This document shows positions 22,916-31,278 of a stretch of 31,278 nt of DNA, one piece after another. Position numbers and translations under genes: made by a program. The notes beneath the pieces are model-generated. The model had not been told where the DNA came from and did not search any database. It was given only the letters and a program-made list of their open reading frames with translations. Position 1 is the first letter of the stretch; every line of letters begins with the position of its first letter. This DNA comes from a virus. The DNA lies in the IMG/VR virus record IMGVR_UViG_3300045988_019785, positions 1 through 31,278 of that record. The stretch is one strand, 5' to 3'.

Positions 22916-23121
22916 CAGAATTCACTCCAATCACCGAACTCGTCCTTGTGGCCGTACTTAGCCTCATACTTGAACCCGAGCCACACACCAGCAATAGCCA
23001 TCAGGATGAGGGCCACGTACCACAGACCGTAGAAGATCATCCAGGTGACCAGGACGCCGACACCTAGTGCAGCAGCGACAGCAGCGATGATACCGGCCAT
23101 GTAGGCGATGAACTTAAGCAT
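22915..23121 (-). CDS. Small membrane protein (68 aa, 2 TM helices)
   Basis: MLKFIAYMAGIIAAVAAALGVGVLVTWMIFYGLWYVALILMAIAGVWLGF is strongly hydrophobic. RBS GAAAGG about 8 nt upstream. It is the first gene downstream of promoter 23157-23185. Confidence 0.6.
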   Translation of the reverse strand: MLKFIAYMAGIIAAVAAALGVGVLVTWMIFYGLWYVALILMAIAGVWLGFKYEAKYGHKDEFGDWSEF

Positions 23122-23156
23122 TGTTTGACCTTTCTTGTTGTTTTCTTGATGTCTTT

Positions 23157-23185
23157 ATCTTAGCACACCTTGAGGAGCTGTGCAA
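23157..23185 (-). promoter_or_regulatory. Sigma70-type promoter (minus strand): TTGCAC-17 bp-TAAGAT, leadered
   Basis: On the minus strand the -35 is TTGCAC (23185-23180), the spacer is exactly 17 bp and the -10 is TAAGAT (23162-23157). The 5' UTR of about 35 nt contains GACATCAAG and RBS GAAAGG before ATG 23121. Confidence 0.65.
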
Positions 23186-23204
23186 CCCCTCAGTGGAGAA
23201 TTTT

Positions 23205-23603
23205 TCAGTTATTTTCAGCAAGCCACTCAGCACCAATCTCGACCAGCTGGTCATAGGTCAGCGTGTAGTCCTCGTCGACCAGGTCGATGAGGTAGCTGAT
23301 GAGGGCCCACACAGGGGTGTCCTCAATGACCTCAGCGGTCTCAGGCAGGACCAGAACCTCACCGAACTCCTCGTCGAGGGGGGTGTCCTCTGACTGAGGG
23401 CCCTCCACACGCACCAGCACAGGGTCAGTGGCGTCTACTGCGTGTGTGGCCCAGTACGCTGCCAGCTCCGCGATGGTCTCACAGCCACTCACACCATGCC
23501 TGACCTTCGACTCGTCGTAGTCCATGGGCCAGCTGTACTGGGTCTCAGGGTCGAGCAGGTACTCAGTACCGCGGTGCTTGTCCTGGATCCTGAAGGCGAT
23601 CAT
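23205..23603 (-). CDS. Highly acidic early protein (132 aa), function unknown
   Basis: About 30 of 132 residues are Asp/Glu and there are few basic residues. It has its own promoter and RBS (GAAAGGA). No motif recognised. Confidence 0.65.
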   Translation of the reverse strand: MIAFRIQDKHRGTEYLLDPETQYSWPMDYDESKVRHGVSGCETIAELAAYWATHAVDATDPVLVRVEGPQSEDTPLDEEFGEVLVLPETAEVIEDTPVWALISYLIDLVDEDYTLTYDQLVEIGAEWLAENN

Positions 23604-23636
23604 CTGTGTAGTCCTTTCGTGTGGCTTGATGTCTCA

Positions 23637-23665
23637 AGCTTACCAACTCTGCCAGGTATATGCAA
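23637..23665 (-). promoter_or_regulatory. Sigma70-type promoter (minus strand): TTGCAT-17 bp-TAAGCT, leadered
   Basis: -35 TTGCAT (23665-23660), 17-bp spacer, -10 TAAGCT (23642-23637). The UTR again contains GACATCAAG and RBS GAAAGGA before ATG 23603. Confidence 0.65.
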
Positions 23666-23764
23666 CTCGGATCAGGGGTTGTTATCAAGATGTTACTTTG
23701 CATTAGTCGAGATTCTAGGGCCTAGCCGCACCCCGGGGGTACAAGAGTACCGGGTAGGGGCTGC

Positions 23765-23777
23765 TAGGCCGTAAATC
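23765..23777. repeat. 13-bp perfect inverted repeat, left copy (TAGGCCGTAAATC), partner at 24080-24092
   Basis: The reverse complement of 23765-23777 equals 24080-24092. The pair brackets the zinc-ribbon gene and its promoter, a 328-bp unit. Confidence 0.8.
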
Positions 23778-24027
23778 AGCGTTGCGTCCAGCTCTCAGGG
23801 ATACTCCTGGCCTTGCTCCAGACACCCTCACGCTGTGCCATGCCCTTAGCCTCCAGCTCAGCTGGGGTCAGGCACCTACGTCGGTCCGGCCCCTCAGTCA
23901 CCCCGTGCAGGCTCGTACGATGCATGTCTCCCGCAGTGGTACCCCCGAACGTCTCGTGGCACACGGGGCAGTGCTCGTAGCTGCGTTTGATGATGTTCTT
24001 CTTGCAGTTTCTGCATGTCCAAGTCAT
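23776..24027 (-). CDS. Zinc-ribbon protein (FDxHR-family-like putative zinc-binding protein)
   Basis: MTWTCRNCKKNIIKRSYEHCPVCHETFGGTTAGDMHRT...RRCLTPAELEAKGM shows CxxC...CxxCH...(F)DxHR...C..P, as in the actinophage FDxHR family. ATG 24027 is preferred. The ORF-track TTG 24063 is actually the -35 box TTGACG. Confidence 0.6.
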   Translation of the reverse strand: MTWTCRNCKKNIIKRSYEHCPVCHETFGGTTAGDMHRTSLHGVTEGPDRRRCLTPAELEAKGMAQREGVWSKARSIPESWTQR

Positions 24028-24034
24028 GTGACCT

Positions 24035-24063
24035 ACCTTAGCACGGGCTAGAGACCCCGTCAA
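24035..24063 (-). promoter_or_regulatory. Sigma70-type promoter (minus strand): TTGACG-17 bp-TAAGGT, start codon 7 nt downstream (leaderless mRNA)
   Basis: -35 TTGACG (24063-24058), 17-bp spacer, -10 TAAGGT (24040-24035), then 7 nt (aggtcac) to ATG 24027. There is no room for an RBS. Confidence 0.7.
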
Positions 24064-24079
24064 GAGTTAACTTATCAGA

Positions 24080-24092
24080 GATTTACGGCCTA
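24080..24092. repeat. 13-bp perfect inverted repeat, right copy (GATTTACGGCCTA)
   Basis: See 23765-23777. It lies 17 bp upstream of the -35 box of promoter 24035-24063. Confidence 0.8.
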
Positions 24093-24176
24093 ACAGGCCC
24101 TGACCCTACCTAGGATACCCCCCGTCCCTTTTGAGGCCGTTTAGGGCGCCTCAGGCAGGGTCAGGATCAATCTAGG

Positions 24177-24557
24177 TCAGGACCACCAACCAGAGCGCGT
24201 CAGCAGGTCCTCCACCCACTCGCGATCGAACCTGCCCTCACGCACCCGGTAGCACACGCGGGCCAGCGCAGCCAGCGGGTGGGACTTGTGGCTGTAGGCC
24301 CACCTCGGGACGCGGGACCAGGCTGCCTTGGCCCCTACGGTGTGGCGCTTGATCATCGTGCCGCAGATGGCGTGGACAGCTAGCGTGAATGTCCAGGAGG
24401 TCAGGGCCACACCTGCCAGGGCGTGTAGGGCATCCTCGAGTGCAGCGATGTTGTCGGTCTGGATGGCGGCCATGAAGTCACCGGCCAGGACGCGCTCATA
24501 GCCGGTCTCCCTCGTGGTCGCGTTGATGGTTGCAAGGATCTCTCGTCTCGTGATCAT
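24177..24557 (-). CDS. Hypothetical early protein (126 aa), first gene of the early arm
   Basis: The ORF starts 6 nt downstream of a consensus -10 box. The gene looks GC-rich compared with the rest of the genome. No motif recognised. Confidence 0.6.
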   Translation of the reverse strand: MITRREILATINATTRETGYERVLAGDFMAAIQTDNIAALEDALHALAGVALTSWTFTLAVHAICGTMIKRHTVGAKAAWSRVPRWAYSHKSHPLAALARVCYRVREGRFDREWVEDLLTRSGWWS

Positions 24558-24563
24558 GGACCC

Positions 24564-24592
24564 ACCCTAGCACGGGACCACACACCGGACAA
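24564..24592 (-). promoter_or_regulatory. Sigma70-type promoter (minus strand): TTGTCC-17 bp-TAGGGT, start codon 6 nt downstream (leaderless mRNA)
   Basis: -35 TTGTCC (24592-24587), 17-bp spacer containing GTGTGGTC (24583-24576 on the minus strand), -10 TAGGGT (24569-24564), then gggtcc and ATG 24557. It shares CCCGTGC-TA(A/G)GGT with promoter 24035-24063. Confidence 0.7.
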
Positions 24593-24608
24593 GTCCCGCC
24601 CTGTGGTT

Positions 24609-24636
24609 CCCTCCCCCCTTAACCCCCCACCCTCCC
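24609..24636 (-). repeat. G-run tract on the minus strand (C-runs on the plus strand), G-quadruplex-prone
   Basis: Plus strand ccctccccccttaaccccccaccctccc has C-runs of 3, 6, 6, 3 and 3. Confidence 0.6.
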
Positions 24637-24643
24637 GCGCGCA

Positions 24644-24682
24644 CGTAGCACGCGGGCGTAGCACGCGGGCGTAGCGCTACGC
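24644..24682. repeat. 13-bp tandem repeat (CGTAGCACGCGGG x2.6) ending in a 14-bp perfect palindrome GCGTAGCGCTACGC
   Basis: Units at 24644-24656 and 24657-24669, with a partial third unit. Palindrome at 24669-24682. Flanked by alternating (CG)n stretches (24636-24642 and 24691-24700). Confidence 0.85.
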
Positions 24683-24713
24683 GTGCATGACGCGCGCGCG
24701 TACGAGGCCGGGA

Positions 24714-24759
24714 CCCCTTCCCCGCCTTCCCCCCAAACCCCCCTATCCACCCTAACCCC
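24714..24759 (-). repeat. Second G-run tract on the minus strand, G-quadruplex-prone
   Basis: Plus strand ccccttccccgccttccccccaaacccccctatccaccctaacccc has C-runs of 4, 4, 6, 6, 3 and 4. Confidence 0.6.
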
Positions 24760-24807
24760 TGAGAGTCTCTCTCTGGCGTTTACGCCTGAGAGAGAGACTC
24801 TCAGGGG
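24756..24807. repeat. Large perfect hairpin/cruciform 1 (19-bp stem plus an apical 4-bp GGCG/CGCC mini-stem)
   Basis: 24756-24774 (cccctgagagtctctctct) pairs perfectly with 24789-24807. The apex GGCGTTTACGCC lies at 24775-24786. Confidence 0.9.
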
Positions 24808-24810
24808 GAG

Positions 24811-24868
24811 TTAGTTAGTTATATATTTCTCTCTTTAGAGGGGGTATGGGGGAGACCTTTCTCTCTTT
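24811..24868. repeat. AT-rich island (ttagttagttatatatt) plus two copies of TTTCTCTCTTT between the two big hairpins
   Basis: TTTCTCTCTTT occurs at 24826-24836 and 24858-24868. This is the only strongly AT-rich stretch in a very GC-rich region of about 1 kb, so it is a candidate DNA-unwinding element. Confidence 0.6.
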
Positions 24869-24892
24869 GTGGGCGTCCTGACCGCTCAGCGC

Positions 24893-24979
24893 CCCGCCGT
24901 GTGAGCCCTCGGTCCAGGGGGCCCCGGGGCCCCAGGCGTAAACGCCGGGCCCCGGCCCTGGACCGAGGGACACGGCGGG
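24893..24979. repeat. Large imperfect hairpin/cruciform 2 (10 + 14 + 9 bp stems plus an apical GGCG/CGCC mini-stem)
   Basis: Pairings: 24893-24902 with 24970-24979, 24906-24919 with 24956-24969, and 24924-24932 with 24947-24955. The apex GGCGTAAACGCC (24935-24946) is the reverse complement of the apex of hairpin 1. Confidence 0.85.
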
Positions 24980-25191
24980 CAGGCACACACCGGGGATTGG
25001 CTTCAGCACGTCTGGCCGATCTGAGGAGGTGTGTGGTCTAGCACTTGGGGCAGTAGAAGCCAGGATGCCTCTGAGAGCCCCAGGAAGGCGCCTAGGAGGG
25101 CCTAGCAGGGTCGGGGTGGCACTGGAGTACCCCCAGACGATTTGAGGCCGTCTGAGGCGAGATACTGAAGCTCTCAGGAGGTGTTGCAGGG

Positions 25192-25506
25192 TTGCGGGGA
25201 GTGTGCTACCATGAGGTCATGGAGTTTCCACGAGAGATTGTTAAGCGAGTTGTCGAGGTGCCGGGGTGGGATGACATACCAGCGCTACCTTGCGCACAAC
25301 GGCTGGAAGAGGCTGGCATGGTCCACGAGGACCAAAGCAAGACCACACGCCTGAGGTACCGGGCGCGGCTTGCGGACTATCCGGTGGAGTCGTATGAGGC
25401 GAGGGCGATCTCACAGGCAGTGCCGACGTACGGCACACGTGTGGTCCAGCTGGAGAGTGTGATCGAGCTTGGGGTGATCTGGGTGAAGGTGACCGTGGCA
25501 TGGTGA
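25192..25506 (+). CDS. Hypothetical protein (104 aa); start uncertain
   Basis: AGGAGG (25176-25181) lies 10 nt before TTG 25192. Alternative in-frame starts are GTG 25201 and ATG 25219. The codon pattern looks coding, but I found no promoter upstream and the region is GC-rich, where spurious ORFs are common. Confidence 0.45.
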   Translation: MRGVCYHEVMEFPREIVKRVVEVPGWDDIPALPCAQRLEEAGMVHEDQSKTTRLRYRARLADYPVESYEARAISQAVPTYGTRVVQLESVIELGVIWVKVTVAW

Positions 25507-25518
25507 CGGCGTGTCGAG

Positions 25519-25547
25519 TTGACATGCTAGGGGGTACCTGCTAGGGT
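25519..25547 (+). promoter_or_regulatory. Sigma70-type promoter (plus strand): TTGACA-17 bp-TAGGGT, candidate promoter of the packaging/late operon
   Basis: Perfect -35 TTGACA (25519-25524), 17-bp spacer (25525-25541) and -10 TAGGGT (25542-25547), the same -10 as the early promoter at 24564. A leader of about 155 nt follows before the HNH ATG. Confidence 0.65.
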
Positions 25548-25692
25548 GTATACCAGGGTAGAAGATATACCCTGGGTACTGGTTTGGAGTACCCCCTGGA
25601 TTGGAACCCCGGGGGTACTCGGGTAAGGTACCCCAGGGGGTGCAGGAATAGCCCCCTGGGGTATACCCCGGTAGGTACCCCCGTAGTACCCC
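25529..25692. repeat. Dense array of GGGGTAC / GTACCCC heptamers and related palindromes (iteron-like)
   Basis: GGGGTAC at 25531 and 25612. GTACCCC at 25589, 25628, 25675 and 25686. GGGGTATACCCC palindrome at 25658-25669. CCAGGGTA-N7-TACCCTGG at 25553-25575. Confidence 0.85.
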
Positions 25693-25708
25693 TGGTAGGA
25701 CGTGTAGG

Positions 25709-26092
25709 ATGCCATATTCAGCCCCTGAGCGATGCTGGTGCGGAGAGCTAGGTTTGCCAGGCACAGCGTTGTGCCTGGCCCACACACCGACAAAGTCTGG
25801 ATGGGAATTGCGTCCAACTGCTTGGCTAGAAGTAGATAACAAAACTAGGTACAAATGGCAGAAGTTAAGGAAAAGATTCTTGAAACAGAATCCTTACTGT
25901 AATTTGTGCGGAATGATTGCAACAGAAGTTGATCACATTCAAGGAATTAAAATAATAAAGAACAAAATAAAAATTCTAGATGAAAATGAATTGCAATCGT
26001 TATGTCATGAATGTCATTCTAAGAAAACAAGGGAAGCGTCTAGAAAATCACGAATGCTCAATCAAAATGCGCGCCGGGGTAACTCTCCGTGA
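25709..26092 (+). CDS. HNH endonuclease (terminase-associated type)
   Basis: N-terminal Cys/His cluster (CWCGELGLPGTALCLAH), then ...YKWQKLRKRFLKQNPYCNLCGMIATEVDHIQG...LQSLCHECHSKKT, the HNH/ββα-Me motif. It lies immediately upstream of terS/terL, as in HK97-type cos phages. Confidence 0.85.
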   Translation: MPYSAPERCWCGELGLPGTALCLAHTPTKSGWELRPTAWLEVDNKTRYKWQKLRKRFLKQNPYCNLCGMIATEVDHIQGIKIIKNKIKILDENELQSLCHECHSKKTREASRKSRMLNQNARRGNSP

Positions 26093-26116
26093 AATACAGG
26101 TTAGTTGATCGTTAAA

Positions 26117-26131
26117 GTGAACAGTGTTCAC
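26117..26131. repeat. 15-bp perfect palindrome GTGAACAGTGTTCAC overlapping the terS start codon
   Basis: gtgaaca-g-tgttcac. It spans the junction of the 31-bp HNH-terS intergenic spacer and the terS start; its central GTG (26124-26126) is the annotated terS start. Confidence 0.8.
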
Positions 26132-26528
26132 TGTTTTGGAAGAAGGTGTTATTTTGACCGAAGAAGAGCGTTTTAGTGAGATTCCTCCTGGAATCGCCAA
26201 TAATGAGGTTTTGCGAGGTGTGTGGTCCGAGCTTGTGGGTATGATGCCCAAGGAAGTTCTTGACAACCTTGATGAAATGGATGGCCTGTTTATCGAGGCT
26301 ATGTGTAGGCATTATGCTATTGCACGAAAAGCCTCGAATGAGGTTATTTCAGCTGATTCAGTATTGGTTACTGATAACCCAAATCACAGGATGCAGAAGC
26401 ACCCAGCTGAGGTTATTTTTAGGTCACAGTCACAGGCATTCCTTGCTTATATGAAAGAGGCTGGATGGACGCCTAAAGCAAGGAATTCGGGTAAGAATAA
26501 AGACACTGATAACCCATTCCTTATGTAA
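26124..26528 (+). CDS. terS: Terminase small subunit (P27 family-like)
   Basis: 134 aa. The pattern ...VWSELVGMMP...LDEMDGLFIEAMCRHYAIARKASNEV...NPNHRMQKHPAEVIFRSQSQAFLAYMKEAGWTPKARN matches the P27-family small terminase. Position is between HNH and terL. The start is uncertain (GTG 26124 or a downstream TTG). Confidence 0.7.
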   Translation: MFTVLEEGVILTEEERFSEIPPGIANNEVLRGVWSELVGMMPKEVLDNLDEMDGLFIEAMCRHYAIARKASNEVISADSVLVTDNPNHRMQKHPAEVIFRSQSQAFLAYMKEAGWTPKARNSGKNKDTDNPFLM

Positions 26529-26538
26529 TCAGAATACG

Positions 26539-28212
26539 ATGAATAATGTAATTCCTAATGAAATTAAAGATTATTTAGTCAGTAGGAAGCTAGATATACC
26601 TGAAAGGGGACCACACCTCAAGTGTCCTGATCCTGGTGGTGTGGTCCACGGTATGCAAGTGCGATTTAACCCGAAGAGCGTAGATCATGCTCTTCGGGTT
26701 ATTTCTGCATTAAGGCATACTAAAGGCCGTTGGGCAGGTAAGCCCCTTAAGCTAACTAATGTGCAGATAGCCTACATTGTGGCCCCGCTGTTTGGCTGGC
26801 AAGTCTATGATGATTCTTTAGGGCGTTGGCTGAGGTTGTATAGGGATGCCTATATTGAAATGCCACGTAAAGGAGCTAAGTCCACACTGGCTAGTGCACT
26901 AGCCATGGTGCTCGCTTTCGGTGATCACGAGGGTGGCGCTGAGGTCATTATCGGGGCAGCTTCGCGAGATCAGGCAGGGGCGTGCTTCACGCCGCTTAAG
27001 CAACTTGTCGACAATAGCCCGCTATTGAAGCAGGCCGGCATCAGATCACTGCATAACTCGATCAAGCAGGACAGGACGAGCTCTGTCATCAAGGTTGTCT
27101 CTAGCAAGGGTGATCTGGCGCACGGTGCCAACCTCCACGGGGCTATCTGTGACGAGCTGCACGTGCATAAGAGCCTTAGCTTGCTAGAGGCTATGGAGAC
27201 AGGTACAGGTGCTCGTGAGCAGCCTCTGACGATGGTGATCACCACAGCTGATGACGGCAGTGTGGGTACGCCGTACGACCAGCGCCGAGAGCTGGTAGAC
27301 AACATATGTAAGGGGGTTGTAGAAGCCCCTAGATCGTTCTGCGTGGTGTGGTCTGCTGACCCTGATGATGACCCCTGGTCGGAAGAGACGTGGGCTAAGG
27401 CTAATCCTCTGTACCCCGTAACTCCGTCAAGAGCATTCATGCAGTCTGCTGCTGATAAAGCTAAGACTGACCCTGTGGCTAAGGCCAGCTTCCTGAGACT
27501 GCACCTAGGCATCAGAGGTAGGCTGGACGAGTCATGGATCAGCAGGGCTGACTGGATGAAGGGGTCTGTGGCCCAGCTGGACATTGAGGGTAGACAGTGC
27601 TATGGCGGCCTGGACCTTGCAGCTGTGTCGGACCTTACAGCACTGGTGTGGTTGTTCCCAGCAGAGGACGGTACCTACCAGATGCTGCCTAGATTCTTCT
27701 TGCCTGAGGCTGCGCTGGCTGAGCTTGACAGGGCCACATACCGTAATGCGAGTGTGTGGGCTAGCCGTGGGTTGATTAAGCTGACTCCAGGTAATGTCAC
27801 TGATTATGATTTTGTTAAAGCTCAGATTGATGAGGACGCTAAGCATTACGACATTCAGTGCATAGGCTTTGACCCGTGGAATGCTACTCAGGTATCTAAT
27901 GATCTTCAAGCTGATGGGTACAGACTTGAGAAAGTCCGTCAGGGGTTTGTCTCTATGTCAGGCCCTATGAAAGAGATTCAGAGGCTGGTTATGCAGGGGG
28001 GTGCTATTAAACATGACGGTAATCCCCTTATGGCGTGGCAGATAGACAATATCCGTCCTGCTATGGATCCTGCTGGTAATATTAAACCTGCTAAGCAAAA
28101 GAAGCGCGATAAGATCGATGGTGTGGCTGCGCTAGTAACAGCTATGAATGTGTGGCAATTCCACAAAACAAAAGTATCGGCTTACGGCGTGTCGGGGCTA
28201 GAATCTATTTGA
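26539..28212 (+). CDS. terL: Terminase large subunit
   Basis: 557 aa. ATPase region (PRKGAKST Walker A-like, ICDELH Walker B) and a C-terminal RNaseH-like nuclease (GLDLAAVSD, IGFDPWNA, DGVAALVTAM). Typical of the Terminase_1 family. Confidence 0.95.
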   Translation: MNNVIPNEIKDYLVSRKLDIPERGPHLKCPDPGGVVHGMQVRFNPKSVDHALRVISALRHTKGRWAGKPLKLTNVQIAYIVAPLFGWQVYDDSLGRWLRLYRDAYIEMPRKGAKSTLASALAMVLAFGDHEGGAEVIIGAASRDQAGACFTPLKQLVDNSPLLKQAGIRSLHNSIKQDRTSSVIKVVSSKGDLAHGANLHGAICDELHVHKSLSLLEAMETGTGAREQPLTMVITTADDGSVGTPYDQRRELVDNICKGVVEAPRSFCVVWSADPDDDPWSEETWAKANPLYPVTPSRAFMQSAADKAKTDPVAKASFLRLHLGIRGRLDESWISRADWMKGSVAQLDIEGRQCYGGLDLAAVSDLTALVWLFPAEDGTYQMLPRFFLPEAALAELDRATYRNASVWASRGLIKLTPGNVTDYDFVKAQIDEDAKHYDIQCIGFDPWNATQVSNDLQADGYRLEKVRQGFVSMSGPMKEIQRLVMQGGAIKHDGNPLMAWQIDNIRPAMDPAGNIKPAKQKKRDKIDGVAALVTAMNVWQFHKTKVSAYGVSGLESI

Positions 28213-30800: not shown

Positions 30801-31278
30801 GCGGGATTGAGGCACTGAAAGTTAAGGCTGCTGAGATCAAGGGCCGGCTGAAGGCAGTCGAAGAGTCAGGGGTTGTAGGTAAAGATACCGAATCTCTGGT
30901 CGAAGAGTATAAGTCAACTATTGCTAAGATCAAGTCCTTCGAGTCGAATGAAGGCGCGGTTAATGAACTGAAAGGAAATTCTGTGGCGGTTGCTGGTGAG
31001 GCTAAGTCCCTGGGTGCGCACTTTGTTAAGCACTTCGGTCCTGAGCTTGCTCGGGTTAAGGGCCGTGACAATTTCTCGGTGAATGGTCCCGAGTTCAAGG
31101 GTGCTGAGGATTGGCACCTGACTTGGGACAGCCTGATCGGTTTTGATACCGATTACGATAAGGCCGCGCATTACGCCCAGCCTCCGCTGTATGTTGGCGA
31201 CCTGTTTGCACAGGGCATGACTAATAGCGCTGCTGTGGCCTGGCTTGATGACAGCGCTGTCGAGGGTGACGCCGGCTC
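30797..31278 (+). CDS. Major capsid protein, N-terminal part (runs off the window end and continues at 1..758)
   Basis: GTG 30797 overlaps the protease stop (GTGA), with AAGGGG upstream. Coiled-coil N-terminus (SGIEALKVKAAEIKGRLKAVEE...) like an HK97 delta domain. No separate scaffold gene is present. Confidence 0.85.
   Translation, partial: MSGIEALKVKAAEIKGRLKAVEESGVVGKDTESLVEEYKSTIAKIKSFESNEGAVNELKGNSVAVAGEAKSLGAHFVKHFGPELARVKGRDNFSVNGPEFKGAEDWHLTWDSLIGFDTDYDKAAHYAQPPLYVGDLFAQGMTNSAAVAWLDDSAVEGDAG
31224..31278. repeat. 55-bp exact terminal direct repeat (copy 2 of 2, identical to 1..55)
   Basis: See the feature at 1..55. Confidence 0.95.

Follow-up and report, generated by a model that had tools for sequence, protein, structure and literature searches.

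A heptamer array upstream of the HNH-terminase operon in an uncultured oral phage clade as a probable structured leader RNA

In the late region of phage lambda, the Q gene is followed by the PR' promoter with its qut site, the tR' terminator, and a late operon that runs through cos. Hairpins at the very beginning of a transcript can serve a different purpose, as 5'-terminal stabilisers such as that of the ompA 5' untranslated region (UTR) block RNases that depend on the 5' end. Actinobacteriophages carry short asymmetric words, the start-associated sequences of Cluster K and the stoperators of Cluster A, which lie near gene starts or between genes and are dispersed genome-wide. The put RNA of phage HK022 is promoter-proximal, contains two long stem-loops of ~70 nucleotides (nt), and acts without dedicated protein factors (PMC9378689). 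Phage HK97 has a 10-nt 3' overhang, and its small terminase subunit (TerS) binds 15–29 bp downstream of the cut (PMC11331095); cos sites between the C-terminus of an HNH endonuclease gene and terS are the arrangement of many HNH-terminase phages (PMC3592412). Here, we analysed a stretch of 31,278 nt, hereafter the window, which is the whole of the IMG/VR virus record IMGVR_UViG_3300045988_019785. In this window, an array of the heptamer GGGGTAC and its reverse complement GTACCCC fills the DNA between a predicted promoter and an operon that begins with the genes for an HNH endonuclease and the small and large terminase subunits (terS and terL). The array is most likely the DNA image of a ~160-nt 5' leader RNA of the rightward HNH-terS-terL-portal-head-tail operon of a small cos phage.

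The window has many close relatives in IMG/VR and in ENA human oral metagenome assemblies, with 94–99% identity in TerL and 75–96% in DNA. More distant relatives are the single contig L033 (68% TerL identity) and a separate clade at 52–54% TerL identity. We gathered 29 distinct promoter-plus-leader sequences, which form two main types, A (the type of the window) and B, plus recombinants. The elements of the region are as follows.

25519–25547, plus strand: predicted sigma-A/sigma-70-type promoter (-35 TTGACA at 25519–25524, 17-nt spacer, -10 TAGGGT at 25542–25547)
25553–25575, plus strand: hairpin H1 at the predicted 5' end of the transcript (CCAGGGTA / loop GAAGATA / TACCCTGG)
25574–25586, plus strand: junction GGGTACTGGTTTG, invariant in 27 of the 29 variants
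25587–25620, plus strand: hairpin H3 (GAGTACCCCC / loop / GGGGGTACTC), with the heptamers at 25589 and 25612 in its arms
25621–25668, plus strand: hairpin H5 (core GTACCCCAGGGGGT at 25628–25641 / loop GCAGGAATA / GCCCCCTGGGGTAT at 25651–25664)
25664–25696, plus strand: C-rich tail of 11–12-nt direct repeats (TACCCCGG / TAGGTACCCCCG / TAGTACCCCTGG), running into the HNH ribosome-binding site
25697–25711, plus strand: likely ribosome-binding region and HNH start codon, with TAGGA 8 nt before the start

GGGGTAC stands at 25531 and 25612, and GTACCCC at 25589, 25628, 25675, and 25686, giving six exact copies in 162 bp versus ~0.03–0.06 expected at the background rate; the palindrome GGGGTATACCCC occupies 25658–25669. 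This clustering is far beyond chance. The original prediction, made from the letters of the window alone, had described the TTGACA-17-TAGGGT promoter, the six enriched heptamers, the palindrome, and the inverted repeat CCAGGGTA-N7-TACCCTGG, and all of them were found where it had placed them. In the whole window, the heptamer occurs 17 times on both strands compared with 4.96 ± 2.25 in dinucleotide shuffles, none of 100 reaching 17, and the copies outside the array are mostly in coding sequence, reading GGGGTAC on the G-rich sense strand. Longer versions of the same words had also been noted at other control points. Their positions were right, the modules containing GTACCCCC at about 25098–25160 and 24087–24145 are conserved, and the heptamer copies at 25124 and 23730 sit inside conserved intergenic modules. 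However, the three longer shared words, though real, are individually unremarkable, each being within chance: a Markov-1 model of this genome yields ~23 exact 13-mer, 80 12-mer, and 308 11-mer repeat pairs, and the copy at 1997 looks like a chance occurrence. Five of the six heptamers lie inside the predicted transcript, and the sixth (25531) is in the promoter spacer. Covariation supports three of the copies, and most of the palindrome, as stem arms; a fourth copy may be a long-range partner, and the other two are weakly constrained.

The comparison of the relatives points to conserved pairing rather than to conserved letters. H1 starts 6 nt past the -10 element, where the start of transcription would be expected, and, like H3 and H5, it is predicted in every variant. 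Type B has the unrelated hairpin GTAATG-TTAAC-CATTAC in the same position, and a sub-lineage (L030-type) has GTATTG...CAATAC there, a two-sided compensatory change. The 20 distinct variants of H3 share one common fold, in which 6 of 11 pairs show two-sided changes. One pair of the outer stem passes through a series of A-U, G.U, and G-C; two relatives (L021 and L187) independently lack one C of the 5' arm together with one G of the 3' arm; and arms mutated to GTGCCCCC/GGGGGCGC retain their pairing. H5, which includes the heptamer at 25628 and the 5' part of the palindrome at 25658–25669, contains a 12-nt perfect inverted repeat and is paired in 100% of its alignment cells. A C-G pair of H5 is replaced by U-A in 6 of 21 distinct sequences, again a two-sided change, and in type B the stem reaches 16–18 bp (GAGATACCC...GGGTATCTC) with G.U variants. 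While the stems vary, the loops of H3 and H5 are invariant, including the H3 loop core CTGGATTGGAAC and the H5 apex GGGGGTGCAGGAATAGCCCC; the apical loop words of the leader are GGAUUGGAA and CAGGAAUAG, and the loops contain GGA.

A covariance model of H3 plus H5 (R1) gave 39 aligned matches, 21 of them distinct. In this alignment, 96.7% of the cells are paired, compared with 38–58% when the partners are slid against each other. Seven pairs have two-sided changes, and the covariation score of 0.265 compares with 0.121 in shuffles, with 0 of 500 reaching it. Covariation among homologues was a check proposed in the original prediction, and the pairing of H3 and H5 proved to be maintained. The two strands could also be told apart. 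At the four outer positions of H3 (x1–x4), every non-Watson-Crick pair is G.U on the plus strand, and the plus-strand fold is more stable than the minus-strand fold in 16 of 20 H3 variants (by a mean of 3.1 kcal/mol) and in 8 of 9 H5 variants. Perfect Watson-Crick variants slightly favour the complement, so the asymmetry stems from the wobble pairs. Because G.U pairs are valid on the plus strand only, the selection points to RNA. Judged from the aligned sequences, selection appears to act on plus-strand pairing, i.e., on RNA, and we have fair confidence that the array is a cis element working at the RNA level.

The hairpins could be real and still non-regulatory, as leftovers of local duplication of a G+C-rich palindromic word that are tolerated in the gap. 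Duplication would yield the reuse of the same word, the last copy and the spacer copy drift freely, and the element is limited to one clade. Yet the loops and the junction are invariant where the neighbouring coding DNA is just 75–90% identical, and the compensatory changes and paired indels amount to purifying selection on pairing, which makes this explanation highly doubtful.

The tail may add further pairing partners. Its GTACCCC at 25675 is invariant, the copy at 25686 varies (GGTAACCCGG, GGTCCCCGG, TATACCCCG), and a 24-nt insertion in type B results in five repeat copies. RNAalifold predicts a long-range helix, P2, between GGGUAC(U) at 25574–25580 and (G)GUACCC at 25674–25680, which would use the heptamer at 25675. 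P2 may close around H3 and H5, and both of its arms never vary. Single-sequence folds put the closing helix elsewhere, and some relatives have a minimum-energy fold in which a tail copy of the heptamer is paired with the 3' arm of H3 instead. Alternative pairings of the leader are possible because C-rich copies outnumber G-rich copies. A search for kissing or long-range sites complementary to the invariant loops found nothing beyond chance 7–8-mers. A Rho-utilisation reading of the tail was ruled out since C is about as frequent as G there (hand count).

The tail also brings up non-B DNA, in which cruciforms, or a G-quadruplex (G4) or i-motif of the tail, would serve as a replication or transcription signal or as a packaging brake. 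At least four C-runs of at least 4 nt, separated by 6–10-nt loops, stand in 25651–25691 (template-strand G4 of the form G4-N6-G5-N7-G4-N10-G5), type B has five runs with 7–8-nt loops, the palindromes could extrude as cruciforms, and packaging would probably meet the array ~400–500 bp before the terminal cos. However, neither a G4 nor a cruciform requires the conserved GTA prefix, the invariant loops, or the strand-specific G.U pairs, and the C-runs in L033 have 13–23-nt loops that are poor for a G4. We consider non-B DNA extremely improbable.

The promoter itself is well preserved. TTGACA is invariant in all 29 distinct relatives, and, 17–18 nt further on, type A has TAGGGT or TAAGGT as its -10 element and type B has TAACCT, so a TANNNT element is kept throughout. 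Types A and B have different spacers and different DNA upstream of -35. The heptamer in the spacer (25531) is the least conserved copy: its variants are GGAGGTACC, GGGGATACC, TGGGGTACC, and GGGAGTACC, and a different sequence, GGGGGATGAGG or GGTGTATGGG, stands there in type B. This copy bears on the suggestion in the original prediction that the array consists of operators, with a regulator reading GGGGTAC half-sites to repress or time the promoter. A site between -35 and -10 is a classic repressor position, the copies occur in both orientations as half-sites would, conserved modules containing GTACCCCC are present in other intergenic regions (25098–25160 and 24087–24145), and the word recurs in the L033 leader. 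It is nevertheless this very copy that is least conserved and replaced in type B. The inverted copies are 0–10 nt apart, a variable spacing unsuited to a single dimeric binder, H1 has been swapped for an unrelated hairpin, the H3 arms mutate while staying paired, and no DNA-binding domain was found in the adjacent small genes. With stems that change sequence and keep pairing, the operator array is weakly supported at best and improbable.

At the other end of the leader, TAGG is invariant in the alignment, and TAGGA would be the Shine-Dalgarno sequence of HNH. The HNH open reading frame (ORF) starts with the ATG at 25709; this start (ATG, or GTG in L031) and the N-terminal peptide are kept in relatives. 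The alternative ATG at 25855 was ruled out as the HNH start, being out of frame, given the conserved start at 25709 and N-terminal peptide. The leader before this ATG, for which about 155 nt had been given, is therefore 161 nt long with the start itself confirmed.

The location of the packaging site could be derived from the ends of public contigs. The features concerned are the following.

25709–26092, plus strand: HNH endonuclease with an N-terminal zinc-ribbon-like CxC...CxxH (Pfam HNH 8.8e-5; PHROG HNH families to 5e-18)
26069–26131, no strand: conserved cos block from the alignment, consisting of cosN and a downstream cosB-like segment with the palindrome GTGAACAGTGTTCAC
26072–26081, no strand: predicted cosN from contig ends, with the 10-nt 3' cohesive end CGCCGGGGTA (CGYCGGGGTA in relatives)
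26155–26528, plus strand: terS (Terminase_4; Pfam and PHROG matches), followed by terL (26539–28212), portal, and protease

Five independent contigs have 26082 as their first base, another begins at 26081, and two more begin at 26089. Contig 3300045988_031494, which is full-length (31,257 bp), begins at 26082, ends at 26071, and lacks exactly 26072–26081, and a contig of another sample stops just before the equivalent CGTCGGGGTA. We infer that the 10-nt gap between the ends of linear assemblies is an end-polished 10-nt 3' overhang. The surrounding block of ~65 bp (26069–26131) is nearly invariant in 23 distinct sequences whose flanking coding DNA varies. Several ~31-kb public contigs end at 24697–24824; a second terminus there was rejected, since the blast matches are self-inverted, and these ends are probably assembly breaks at long perfect hairpins. 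As cosN maps to 26072–26081, cleavage does not take place in the array, which is also on the wrong side of cosN to serve as a cosB. The cos lies between the HNH C-terminus and terS, 370–540 bp downstream of the array. In the DNA as packaged, the array is close to the right end, which enters last. The genome termini, whose mapping the original prediction had proposed as a check, fall at 26071/26082, outside 25519–25708.

These ends bear directly on the proposal that the array is a DNA packaging recognition site, either a cosB- or pac-like TerS array or a set of HNH nickase sites. Several observations would suit it: the array shares its non-coding end region with HNH-terS-terL, the overhang CGCCGGGGTA contains CCGGGGTA, the reverse complement of 25664–25671, and the tail repeats are 11–12 bp apart, about one helical turn. 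Zinc-ribbon HNH enzymes adjacent to terminases are site-specific nickases with 3–7 bp specificity (PMC3592412). However, the array neither contains nor adjoins the cleavage site, being 370–540 bp from cosN, and it lies not between cosN and terS but on the opposite side of cosN. A separate near-invariant block just downstream of cosN (26082–26131) occupies the position expected from HK97 TerS. Stems that change and stay paired, with G.U on one strand only, are unexpected for a double-stranded DNA site. The 8-mer shared by overhang and array has an estimated chance probability of roughly 0.06, and the putative cos of L033 does not share its leader word in the same way. Recognition of the array by terminase or HNH is very improbable.

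The gene content around the cut fits an HK97-like HNH cos module, with Pfam matches to HNH, Terminase_4, and TerL_ATPase plus TerL_nuclease and the 10-nt gap between contig ends. The operon opens with HNH, which comes last among the genes of the packaged linear genome, and the HNH N-terminus is conserved in relatives, L033, and the Arthrobacter phage RootBeer. Because the predicted cut falls within the last seven HNH codons (...N-A-R-R-G-N-S-P-stop, 26072–26092), the complete HNH frame with its stop exists only in circular or concatemeric DNA. Within HNH, a perfect 10-bp hairpin at 25756–25779 (GCCAGGCACA-gcgt-TGTGCCTGGC) is conserved at the nucleotide level in all relatives; four of them carry ...CCTGGT, giving G.U on the plus strand only. 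The mechanical ORF call for terS begins at GTG 26124 and so overlaps the conserved cos block. In relatives there are alternative cassettes of ribosome-binding site plus start (GAAGAAGG...TTG or GAGGAG...ATG) that point to a start at 26155, and the real start of terS is probably the TTG at 26155, which is ATG in many relatives.

On balance, we favour a leader RNA that is transcribed, structured, and active in cis as the probable identity of the array, over a packaging site or an operator array. The hairpins lie downstream of the predicted promoter, upstream of the first start codon, and on the sense strand, and they combine compensatory maintenance of pairs with strand-specific G.U, seen in few lineages and in a model-fitted alignment. 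The structured leader RNA among the options of the original prediction was thus right in kind, as indicated by the conserved promoter, compensatory substitutions, paired indels, plus-strand G.U pairs, and the covariation count.

Several points weigh against this reading. That the RNA exists, where its transcription starts, and when it is made are all inferred. The alignment behind the formal covariation count was fitted to a structure model, the relatives are two main lineages plus recombinants and thus represent few independent events, and the wobble tally is not exclusive, with ~8 changes creating G.U versus 2 creating A.C. The fold of the window's own leader has a modest z-score of -2.8 on each strand. 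H3 and H5 lack U-tracts and so are not canonical intrinsic terminators. The neighbouring small gene has no antiterminator, Q-like, or RNA-binding domain according to Pfam, PHROG, and structure searches. Lastly, structure alone does not explain why one word is reused in all stems or why the tail GTACCCC is invariant.

The leader might act on the expression of the late operon in cis after initiation, from a promoter that would be recognised by the host and seemingly constitutively strong. Control after initiation is plausible because this promoter looks strong and of the host type, no conserved activator site was found upstream of it, and the phage has no recognisable late regulator. H1 would be a 5'-end stabiliser hairpin that shields the transcript from decay. 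H3 and H5, which are G+C-rich, very stable, and close to the promoter, would form a pause or attenuation barrier and at the same time a docking platform whose invariant loops bind a factor; the invariance of the loops suggests a sequence-specific partner. By its position, the protein of the small gene immediately upstream might be that factor, which would allow read-through, HNH translation, or both, resembling PR'-tR'/Q of lambda or put of HK022. The operon must be transcribed across the joined cos. It also contains a strong terminator-like hairpin at 798–831, just after the major capsid gene, with a 14-bp stem (GTAAGGGGGTCATC...GATGACCCCCTTAC) and a T-rich tail, which makes read-through control plausible; this hairpin overlaps the start of the mechanically called ORF 761–1291. 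No terminator-like site of the kind with a U-tract was found in 25500–25710, where H5 runs into UAUACCCCGG. Reading the GGA loops as CsrA-type sites was considered and not taken up, as actinobacterial-type signals speak against CsrA.

Gating by attenuation or antitermination would be our first choice of mechanism, with control of mRNA stability or of HNH translation nearly equal to it. Taken singly, gating specifically is a tentative proposal, and a role mainly in mRNA stability or translation is equally tentative. H3 plus H5 might even be a new processive-antitermination or attenuation RNA, either factor-independent like HK022 put or read by the small upstream protein, that lets the polymerase cross cos and the post-capsid terminator; we regard this as unlikely. 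In a variant of the scheme, HNH or TerS would bind its own leader through the word in common with the cos overhang, thereby coupling the dosage of packaging enzymes to genome processing. If H3 plus H5 proved to be such an antitermination or attenuation RNA, they would set the timing of the entire packaging and structural operon in an uncultured phage clade of the human mouth.

The small gene is a candidate trans-acting partner of the leader by position only.

25219–25506, plus strand: small gene of 95 amino acids from ATG 25219 (longest ORF from TTG 25192), directly upstream of the promoter

Its homologues were found only on ~31-kb contigs of this phage group, all without annotation, and the protein has no Pfam or PHROG match. 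The AlphaFold model (predicted local distance difference test, pLDDT, 84) has a beta-beta-alpha-beta-beta fold, for which Foldseek found nothing in the PDB below E=0.04 or above a template-modelling (TM) score of 0.5. The C-terminal VAW-stop is kept in relatives.

The leader appears to be restricted to the close clade. The covariance model of H3 plus H5 had no match outside it among all fetched loci, which included L033, the 52–54% clade, RootBeer, Gudmit, and Shambre1, and an Rfam covariance scan of 23000–26600 at E<=1 returned nothing in 25519–25708, whether of nut/put type, riboswitches, or HEARO/omega RNA, and only sub-threshold miRNA-like matches elsewhere, all in the hairpins at 24750–24980. 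In L033, the leader directly upstream of HNH (866–990) differs in sequence and has an extended -10 promoter, TGnTATAAT; it contains two strong hairpins, a fold z-score of -4.5, and repeated TACCCCCC/GGGGGGTAC words. The theme of a hairpin leader therefore extends past one clade and its sequence does not. The L033 leader also carries the direct repeat ACCCCCCTCA twice, and one of its hairpins pairs GUACCCCCC with GGGGGGUAC 5 nt before the start codon, which could sequester the ribosome-binding site. The 52–54% clade has no array, and other genes directly precede its HNH; in RootBeer, a 421-bp non-coding gap without an array stands upstream of the right-end HNH.

The window is a circularly assembled, complete phage genome of ~31,223 bp from human oral metagenomes. 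Its circularity follows from the first and last 55 bases (1–55 and 31224–31278), which are identical, and from the major capsid gene, which crosses the junction. This direct repeat at the ends stems from overlap in the assembly (k=55 style) of a circular contig, and the window ends split the capsid gene. HNH (25709–26092), terS (Terminase_4), terL (26539–28212), portal, prohead protease, and the capsid, tail, and lysis genes follow one another on the plus strand to ~11.8 kb, and the minus strand holds at 12.4–24.6 kb a replication module with DNA polymerase, helicase, primase, Sak4, exonuclease, thymidylate synthase, and dCMP deaminase. No integrase was seen in the gene content of the window. 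By TerL, the nearest cultured phages (45–48%) are Arthrobacter and Gordonia phages of the cos type with records that start just before terS, and DNA similarity to cultured phages amounts merely to weak terL matches, to Mycobacterium abscessus prophages. A TerL search of GTDB genomes gave a 5-kb contig binned as Oscillospiraceae as the top match and otherwise distant Alphaproteobacteria, which does not identify the host.

Between the two arms lie a G+C-rich non-coding zone (24560–25190), one small plus-strand gene (25192/25219–25506), and the heptamer array. The zone, with 62–66% G+C, parts the leftward replication arm from the rightward genes and holds C-tracts, the tandem repeat GCACGCGGGCGTA in two copies, and long near-perfect hairpins at 24756–24807 and 24893–24979; it is a candidate origin or early-promoter region. 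A ~60-nt intergenic module, GGCCTA[AG]CAG ... [GA]TACCCCC ... TTTGAGGCCGT[CT]TA, is present at 25098–25160 and 24087–24145, both copies being oriented along the plus strand, though one sits among minus-strand genes. A related long hairpin occupies 23720–23770, and all three sites contain GTACCCCC and are kept in relatives. The 8-mer GACCACAC (extended [AG]GACCACAC[ACG]) is a stronger genome-wide signal than the heptamer, with 24 copies on both strands versus 1.4 expected and 0 of 100 shuffles reaching 24. Its copies (for example at 1569, 1606, 14332, 17445, 24576, 25031, 25341, 26220, 26609, and 26639) are mainly within genes, at times as inverted pairs 30–37 bp apart. Close relatives carry it at a similar density (0.7–1.0 per kb), which falls to about zero for L033, the 52–54% clade, and the cultured relatives. 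It might be a Chi-like site, a modification target, or a dispersed operator.

In summary, the cohesive ends of an uncultured oral phage clade were placed to the nucleotide from public assemblies alone. The same clade has a candidate cis-RNA, absent from Rfam, whose architecture runs from a promoter and a 5' hairpin through two covarying stems, their loops invariant, to a C-rich tail. How small lytic phages of the Gram-positive or actinobacterial type time their late genes is poorly understood, and recognisable late regulators are often missing. Should the leader control read-through into the operon of terminase and structural genes, it would be a compact new case of RNA-based late control; should it only stabilise mRNA, it would be an ordinary feature.

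The closest described systems each share a part of this arrangement. In HK97 (HNH gp74 - cos - TerS gp1 - TerL gp2), as in this phage, HNH is the last gene, terS, terL, and portal come first, and the overhang is a 10-nt 3' end, with the conserved segment here just past the cut, where HK97 TerS binds (+15 to +29); the differences are that the cut here falls inside the last HNH codons and that the heptamer array lies outside the module, upstream of HNH. Unlike the motifs of Clusters K and A, the heptamer is concentrated in one leader as paired RNA arms, and the dispersed motif of this genome is GACCACAC. H1 resembles the ompA-type stabilisers in that, for both leader types, its start coincides with the nucleotides predicted to be transcribed first, but it alone fits them, and the invariant loops of H3 and H5 and the C-rich tail are left unaccounted for. 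H3 plus H5, as a two-stem module of ~82 nt starting ~35 nt past the predicted transcription start, is reminiscent of HK022 put, whereas the loops are different, the host is non-enteric, and there is no detectable homology in sequence or structure (no Rfam match at E<=1). Like the lambda late region, this locus combines a strong host-type promoter, a ~160–190-nt leader with stable hairpins, a very long late operon across the joined cos, and a small gene immediately upstream of the promoter. Unlike in lambda, neither a Q-like protein nor qut features were identified, U-tracts are missing from H3 and H5, the leader is followed by HNH instead of lysis genes, and similarity in sequence or to Rfam is absent. 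We class the element with the structured leaders already familiar from phage operons, as a new member specific to its clade, and not as a system of a new kind.

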